From Escherichia coli (GTDB lineage: Bacteria > Pseudomonadota > Gammaproteobacteria > Enterobacterales > Enterobacteriaceae), in the NCBI RefSeq assembly GCF_003334335.1, contig NZ_QOWQ01000089.1: 2,353 bases of DNA, one strand, 5' to 3'. Below the pieces are notes generated by a model. That model was not told where the DNA came from. It was given only the letters and a program-made list of their open reading frames with translations, and made no database searches. Shown here piece after piece: positions 1,368 through 2,353 of this stretch (the first letter of the stretch is position 1; each line of letters opens with the position of its first letter). The translations under genes were made by a program, and so were the position numbers.

Positions 1368-2353
1368 CTTTGCTGTTGTTTGTGGAGTGGCACTTCGTGG
1401 GCTTTTACGCCCACTGCCTGTAACCACCGTTGAATGGGCCGATCAAAATTATTATTTGCCCCCGGAGTCCTCTTATCTTGCTGGGCGGTGGAAGACGTTG
1501 CCCTTTCAGGTGGCAATAATGAACTGCATGGGTAATGACCGGATCCGCACAATTAATCTTATAAAATCAGCTCGAGTCGGTTACACCAAAATGCTGATGG
1601 GCGTTATTGGTTACTTTATTGAGCATAAAAACCGTAACAGTCTTCTGTTTCAGCCTACGGATTCTGCCGCTGAAGATTTTATGAAGTCTCATGTGGAGTC
1701 AACATTACGGGATGTTCCCTGTCTGAAAATTCTTTCCCCCTGGCTGGGGCGTAAGCACCGGGATAACACACTGACATTAAAAAGATTCACGTCCCGTGTG
1801 GGGTTCTGGTGCCTGGGTGGTGCTGCCGCCAAAAACTACCGTGAAAAATCCGTGGACGTGGTCTGCTATGACGAACTTTCCTCGTTCGAGCCGGATGTCG
1901 AAAAAGAGGGCTCGCCAACCCTGCTGGGGGATAAGCGTATTGAGGGCTCGGTATGGCCAAAATCCATTCGCGGCTCGACGCCTAAAATAAAAGGCTCCTG
2001 CCAGATCGAAAAAGCGGCCAACGAGTCGGCGCATTTCATGCGTTTTTATGTGCCCTGCCCACACTGTGGGGAGGCGCAGTATCTGAAATTTGGCGATGAG
2101 TCCACGCCTTTTGGCCTTAAATGGGAGAAGGACAGTCCAGAAAGTGTTTTCTACCTCTGTGAACATCATGGCTGCGTGATCCATCAGTCTGATCTTGACC
2201 AGAGCAACGGGCGGTGGATCTGTGAAAACACGGGCATGTGGACCCGTGACGGCCTGACGTTTTTCAGCGCTGCGGGTAATGAAATTCCGCCGCCGCGCTC
2301 CATCACATTCCATATCTGGACGGCGTACAGTCCGTTCACCACCTGGGTACAGA
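1339..2353 (+). CDS. A: Terminase large subunit (lambda gpA family), N-terminal 338 codons; continues past the window end
   Basis: Frame 1 is open from the ATG at 1339 to the window end. Translation is [86 protein letters not shown]...[10 protein letters not shown]...[25 protein letters not shown]...[20 protein letters not shown]...[23 protein letters not shown]...[17 protein letters not shown]. It is collinear with lambda gpA from memory, including the P-loop-like KSARVGYxK with Lys at codon 76 and YDE with Glu at codon 179. A GGAG Shine-Dalgarno motif at 1328-1331 precedes the ATG, and the start overlaps the Nu1 3' end by 29 nt. It is absent from the ORF track because there is no stop codon in the window. 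Confidence 0.92.

Follow-up and report, generated by a model that had tools for sequence, protein, structure and literature searches.

A lambda-type packaging junction with a complete predicted cos site and an intact-looking terminase ATPase centre in Escherichia coli DNA

The stretch of Escherichia coli DNA analysed here (2,353 nucleotides in full, hereafter the window) carries the end of a set of lysis genes, a non-coding interval, the gene encoding a terminase small subunit (Nu1) and the first part of the gene encoding the large subunit (gene A, product gpA). The coding features are listed below.

1..263, + strand: 3′ end of the Rz spanin gene, in the frame of base 3, with stop TAA at 261-263 (PHROG phrog_13, Rz-like spanin, E 6e-40)
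16..201, + strand: Rz1 outer-membrane lipoprotein spanin, 61 aa, inside Rz in another frame, with lipobox VSAC (PHROG phrog_3198, E 1.3e-30)
819..1367, + strand: Nu1, terminase small subunit, 182 aa (PHROG phrog_57, E 2.6e-67; 62% identity to lambda Nu1 and 64% to phage 21 gp1)
1339..2353, + strand: gene A, terminase large subunit, codons 1-338 of 642, with the ATPase domain and the start of the nuclease domain, running off the window (PHROG phrog_15, E 7e-179)

The counterpart of Rz is annotated as endopeptidase Rz in the record of Escherichia phage PhiR5_1, a close relative described below. The Pfam family Rz1 was found on the corresponding gene in two of the genomic loci compared (L014 and L019), and Pfam Phage_Nu1 was detected in the genomic loci, while an NCBIfam search returned no family for gpA(1-338), Nu1, Rz or Rz1. 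Nu1 and gene A overlap by 29 nt. Between the Rz stop and the Nu1 reading frame lies a non-coding stretch of 555 bases. A search of the window against Rfam with E up to 1 gave no match, no terminator-like sites were found at 200-900, and promoter-like sites in the same scan were present at chance level only. The gap from Rz to cosQ (264-600) is about 340 nt long and non-coding, and window 1-719, this gap included, shares about 91% identity with Stx1a-converting phages.

Within the non-coding stretch, the following cos elements were identified.

601..607, + strand: cosQ-like heptamer GGGTCCT, identical to lambda cosQ and at the same distance from cosN as at lambda's right end
631..642, + strand: cosN cohesive-end 12-mer GGGCGGCGACCT, the predicted staggered-nick site of terminase, identical to bases 1-12 of lambda and of phage 21
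680..798, + strand: cosB, aligned to the annotated cosB features of phage 21 (OL657228.1), boundaries approximate
about 680-695, + strand: putative R3-like site of cosB, aligned to the annotated site of phage 21
704-716, + strand: putative I1-like IHF site of cosB, aligned to the annotated site of phage 21
about 738-753, inverted: putative R2-like site of cosB, aligned to the annotated site of phage 21
about 782-798, + strand: putative R1-like site of cosB, aligned to the annotated site of phage 21

In lambda, cosQ is required for packaging termination (PMC4669245). The identity with lambda at the cohesive end extends over bases 1-41 after the nick, covering the 12-mer and the next 29 bases. 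Further downstream, the R-like and I1-like sequences, placed from alignment only, align with the annotated sites of phage 21, and a Nu1 gene is present; a repeat search around cos gave short, weak pairs only, which did not delimit the R sites. The predicted cos is thus complete and of lambda type, with cosQ, cosN, and a cosB containing R-like sites and a putative IHF site. At the sequence level, its 12-base cohesive end and its upstream cosQ, both identical to those of lambda, place it in the lambda-like cos packaging group defined in PMC4669245. We also observed a small hypervariable patch adjoining the nicking site: at 615-622, in the interval separating cosQ from cosN, 7 of the 8 bases of the window and PhiR5_1 are unlike those of every genomic locus compared in register, loci whose sequence otherwise matches the window exactly from 623 onward.

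Residues 20 and 24 of Nu1 and bases 56 and 59 of R3 have been flagged as specificity determinants (PMC4669245). The R cores of the window cosB are of the CATGTC type, as in phage 21. R3 bases 56/59 are G/A in the window, G/G in phage 21 and T/C in lambda, and the recognition residues 20/24 of Nu1 are D/T, E/S and Q/E in the same order. Judged by this comparison, DNA recognition in the window is probably 21-like with small variations.

Megablast matched the window to Escherichia phage PhiR5_1 (PV340545.1; host field of the record, E. coli C), with 2351 of 2353 bases identical. At the two mismatches, G78 is replaced by A in PhiR5_1, changing Val to Ile in Rz and being silent in Rz1, and A349 is replaced by C in non-coding DNA. 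The record is a complete lambdoid genome in prophage order, running from int, xis, exo/bet/gam, cI, cro, cII, O, P and Q through the lysis genes to cos, followed by Nu1, A, W, B, C/Nu3, D, E, FI, FII, the tail genes, J and lom. Its gene A is intact over 642 codons, and the product is 65% identical to full-length lambda gpA, with a Pfam GpA_nuclease domain (PF20454) at 323-601 (E 7.6e-71). The protein also keeps the motifs around lambda D401 (AGIDSQ) and K497 (GASVYGKP), two positions which we take to be functional residues of gpA. Our literature search found no mention of PhiR5_1 by name. PMC13190303 cites Brenes and Laub 2025 for its panel of PhiR-named temperate phages, and the name itself suggests ECOR strain 5 as the strain from which PhiR5_1 may have been induced.

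Relatives of the window are widespread in the host species. Of 5426 complete E. coli genomes, 33 contain at least 80% of the window, the best being 99.3% identical to it, and 4562 match it at least in part, with a median of 2 matching places in each genome. The exact 642-aa gpA was present in 286 blocks of the assembly collection. Ten genomic loci were read among these exact-protein matches; all ten have DNA identical to the window from about 623 to 2353, and all ten differ from it at 19 or more bases upstream of base 623. The half of gpA with the nuclease, strand-separation and portal-binding parts is encoded beyond base 2353; the 642-aa gene A with this half is intact in PhiR5_1 and in these 10 loci, and in 9 of the 10 it is followed by W, the portal gene and the protease gene. 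In locus L014 (GCA_028913665.1, contig ABKVLQ010000023.1; L014:4930-7929), gene A is identical and homology is lost about 95 nt past its stop, inside W. Beyond the breakpoint lie Mom/Com and inverted lambdoid late genes (DUF826, DUF1378 and a SASA-family gene) in place of an intact W and portal gene, which looks like an inter-prophage rearrangement that left an intact terminase without its head genes.

Taking these features together, we consider it very likely that the window represents the packaging junction of a temperate coliphage or prophage of the lambda/21 type that is essentially PhiR5_1, and that it comprises the lysis-gene end, a complete cos, Nu1 and the ATPase half of gene A. A terminase and cos feature of this kind is ordinary and already annotated in public records. 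An alternative to be weighed is that the ATPase half is intact in a prophage that is defective or rearranged, in which case the motifs would be relics or would serve to package other elements only, and the phage would not be inducible. Defects are common among the lambdoid prophages of E. coli. The frequency of partial matches in the complete genomes is in line with this alternative, as are the end of the window at codon 338 of gene A and the replacement of W and the portal gene in L014. However, window 350-2353 is identical to a phage whose record names a propagation host and holds a full gene set, the order A, W, portal and protease is kept in nine of the ten loci read, and the predicted cos is complete. 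We regard a defective source as unlikely.

The gene A frame was next considered together with its ATPase motifs, which are listed here with two further features of the same domain.

1474..1476, + strand: Tyr46, the equivalent of lambda Y46, in an aligned column that is Y in lambda, phage 21, LESphi3 and a Ralstonia phage
1564..1590, + strand: deviant Walker A/P-loop K76-S-A-R79-V-G-Y-T83-K84, encoded by AAA TCA GCT CGA GTC GGT TAC ACC AAA (lambda alignment and family alignment)
1858..1875, + strand: Walker B V174-V-C-Y-D178 followed by the predicted catalytic Glu179, with YDE encoded by TAT GAC GAA at 1867-1875 (lambda alignment)
2056..2175, + strand: four-cysteine cluster C240-x2-C243 ... C274-x4-C279, a zinc-ribbon-like insertion in the ATPase domain, with all four Cys also in lambda

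We take Y46 to be the Q-motif or adenine-contact residue; the source for its functional role in lambda is reportedly Tsay et al. 2009. The K76R change is likewise said to be a packaging-defective lambda mutation, described by Duffy and Feiss in 2002 and by delToro et al. in 2016. A full-text literature search found no direct experimental test of K76, and its assignment here follows the motif string in PMC6379665. For E179 the evidence in lambda is experimental: it is the catalytic carboxylate, every change of it is lethal, and non-conservative changes abolish ATP hydrolysis and translocation (PMC6379665).

Reading from ATG 1339, codon 76 falls at 1564 ((1564-1339)/3+1 = 76) and codon 179 at 1873 ((1873-1339)/3+1 = 179). 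The initial annotation had placed the Lys that opens KSARVGYTK at codon 76 (1564-1566) and the Glu of YDE at codon 179 (1873-1875), and the bases there indeed read AAA and GAA. It had also given K76 and E179 as the corresponding residues of lambda gpA. These positions were correct, as the published lambda motifs are Walker A KSA-R79-VGYS, which puts the lysine at 76, and Walker B VAGYD followed by E179 (PMC6379665; Ortiz et al., NAR 2018, Table 1). The formal alignment agrees. BLASTP against lambda gpA (NP_040581; NC_001416, 711-2636) gave one gapless block pairing residues 1-338 with 1-338, with K76 on K76 and E179 on E179 (69% identity, 521 bits, reported E-value 0.0). Since this homology contains no indels, the shared numbering is not a matter of chance. 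The start codon was checked as well: ATG 1339 is the first in-frame start past the stop TAG at 1282, is preceded by GGAG at a distance of 7 nt, aligns with the annotated lambda gene A start (GTG at lambda 711) and is the start annotated in PhiR5_1. A match of motif positions produced by coincidence or by a wrongly chosen start is thus extremely improbable and was rejected, given the gapless alignment from M1 on both proteins and the start-codon check, and no point in its favour was found. The unaided reading of the motifs in the window was accurate.

The conservation of these residues was assessed in a family alignment of 10 sequences (the window, lambda, phage 21, Pseudomonas LESphi3, a Ralstonia phage, Vibrio K242, Rhodobacter RcKai, Synechococcus S-CBS3, Wolbachia WO and Burkholderia AH2), in which the most distant member has about 24% identity. 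K76, R79 and T83 are conserved across this alignment, with K in 8 of 10 sequences at column 76 and S or T throughout at column 83. D and E occupy columns 178 and 179 in 9 of the 10 and are invariant in a 9-sequence alignment. The Walker A string KSARVGYTK and the Walker B string VVCYDE are identical in the window and phage 21. The two exceptions at column 76, S-CBS3 and AH2, carry their lysine at column 82, as in the classical GK[T] motif, a pattern that fits a "deviant" Walker A in the lambda type, whose lysine would have moved to the start of the loop. In this small sample of 10 sequences, each sequence has its lysine in one of the two columns, 76 or 82, and none has it in both.

Of the features that characterise lambda-type gpA proteins, the N-terminal ATPase domain and both Walker motifs were found in the window product. 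The Walker A pattern K76-SA-R79-VGY-[ST]83 is represented by KSARVGYT at codons 76-83, and the Walker B strand ending in D178 and followed by E179 by VVCYD-E at codons 174-179. The N-terminal GpA_ATPase domain (Pfam PF05876) was detected at 47-293 (E 2.1e-54) in the full-length PhiR5_1 protein, which is identical to the window product over 1-338. Y46, T194, G212 and the four cysteines are also common to the window and lambda gpA, and against phage 21 gp2 the gene A product shows 84% identity. Judged by its sequence, the product can securely be identified as a lambda-type packaging ATPase.

Selection on the domain was estimated by the Nei-Gojobori method. The comparison with phage 21 over codons 49-338 (dS 0.74) and that with lambda over codons 1-338 both gave a dN/dS ratio of 0.08, which indicates that the ATPase domain evolved under strong purifying selection. 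There are no in-frame stops across the 338 codons of gene A in the window. By every available sequence test the ATPase centre therefore appears intact, from which we infer that it would be active. The initial annotation had gone further and proposed that the packaging motor is probably intact and the element possibly inducible. The first proposal holds for codons 1-338, where the ATPase domain has an open frame, its motifs and the mark of selection; for the rest, an intact C-terminal half of gene A in the source of the window is inferred from its near-identical relatives, namely PhiR5_1 and the 10 loci. As to the second, inducibility is not readable from two ATPase residues and depends on many other genes. 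A hint of it comes indirectly from the near-identity of the window to a deposited complete phage, and this hint is tempered by L014, in which an identical gene A with rearranged neighbours indicates that an intact terminase is no guarantee of an intact prophage. A competent-looking ATPase centre and a complete cos are necessary, and far from sufficient, for a live phage.

To describe the fold, a model of the 338 residues was predicted with AlphaFold2 (mean pLDDT 85.8, pTM 0.84). A strand at 71-76, a loop and a helix at 82-97 form a P-loop arrangement in this model, and a strand at 174-178 directly precedes E179. A PDB search with the gpA sequence gave no match, so that no gpA-family structure is detectable there by sequence. 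With the predicted structure, the top Foldseek match in the PDB was the T4 gp17 ATPase (E 1.9e-7, probability 1.00), and further matches included the large terminases of P74-26, HK97 and T7 as well as other ASCE ATPases, among them PriA and KaiC. On the predicted structure, the protein thus has the TerL-type fold of the ASCE P-loop viral packaging ATPases. The model shows a small beta-sheet in the region of the four cysteines, and PriA helicase is among the fold matches. In the 9-sequence alignment, C243 and C274 do not vary, down to 25% identity, and the cluster may be a zinc ribbon.

The terminase is not uniformly related to its two best-known relatives. Residues 49-338 of gpA are 90.7% identical to phage 21 and 72.1% to lambda, and residues 339-642, taken from PhiR5_1, are 98.7% and 61.5% identical, respectively. 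For gpA residues 1-48 the corresponding values are 42% and 50%, and for Nu1 residues 141-182 they are 36% and 41.5%. Window 1240-1485 corresponds to Nu1 codons 141-182 plus gpA codons 1-48, with 36-50% identity to lambda or phage 21. A sensitive blastn search with this 246-base module found PhiR5_1 only among 50,697 phage records. According to work attributed to Frackman, Wu and Feiss, the gpA N-terminus is reportedly the partner of the Nu1 C-terminus. The C-terminus of Nu1 carries the large-subunit-binding domain in both lambda and phage 21 (PMC4669245). Judging from the low identity of both, the presumed partner segments appear to have diverged together. We tentatively propose, as a possibility we hold to be somewhat less probable than its opposite, that the window encodes a mosaic terminase in which a 21-like gpA body and a probably 21-like cosB/Nu1 recognition would be combined with a divergent interface representing a third, orthogonal specificity of holoenzyme assembly. 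If this is true, subunits of the window type would not combine with those of lambda or 21 when the prophages share a host cell. The divergent module at the Nu1/gpA interface might be used in testing how subunit-pairing specificity evolves, or in building orthogonal cos-packaging systems.

In lambda, Nu1 dimers occupy the R sites with the help of an IHF bend, cosN is nicked by gpA, the complex docks on the portal, translocation is driven by ATP, and cosQ with cosN terminates packaging (PMC4669245). By analogy with lambda, a similar course can be proposed for the window. Nu1 dimers would occupy the R sites of cosB while IHF bends the DNA, an arrangement that would position gpA to nick cosN and generate the 12-base cohesive ends. 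The terminase complex would then dock on the portal, and the ATPase domain of gpA would pump DNA into the prohead. In this domain, the P-loop K76-SAR79VGY-T83 would hold ATP and Mg2+, D178 would chelate Mg2+, and E179 would activate the attacking water. Packaging would end at the next cos, through cosQ together with cosN.

Compared with known systems, the window is closest to PhiR5_1, which has the same cos, Nu1 and gpA codons 1-338 and is identical over 350-2353, both mismatches lying upstream of cos. Phage 21 (OL657228.1) shares the cosB layout of R3, I1, inverted R2 and R1, and its Nu1 residues 1-60 are 73% identical to those of the window, with R21 in both. Lambda gpA has K76 and R79 (KSARVGY, then S or T), D178, E179, Y46, T194, G212 and the four Cys all as in the window, while it differs by S83T, A175V and G176C, positions at which the window has the residues of phage 21. 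The Nu1/A overlap is present in lambda as in the window. In contrast, lambda gene A starts with GTG and that of the window with ATG, lambda gpA residues 1-48 are only 50% identical to the window, and the cosB R sites and Nu1 residues of lambda (Q20/E24) differ from those of the window (D20/T24). Lambda also has about 2 kb between Rz and cosQ, with bor and other genes, whereas the window has about 340 nt. The solved TerL ATPases (T4 gp17, 2o0j; P74-26, 4zni; HK97, 6z6d) resemble the window in their ASCE P-loop fold, which is predicted here, in the catalytic Glu right after Walker B and in an Arg inside Walker A. They share only 11-17% sequence identity with the window, however, and their lysine is the classical one of GK[ST], whereas in the lambda type the lysine opens the P-loop.
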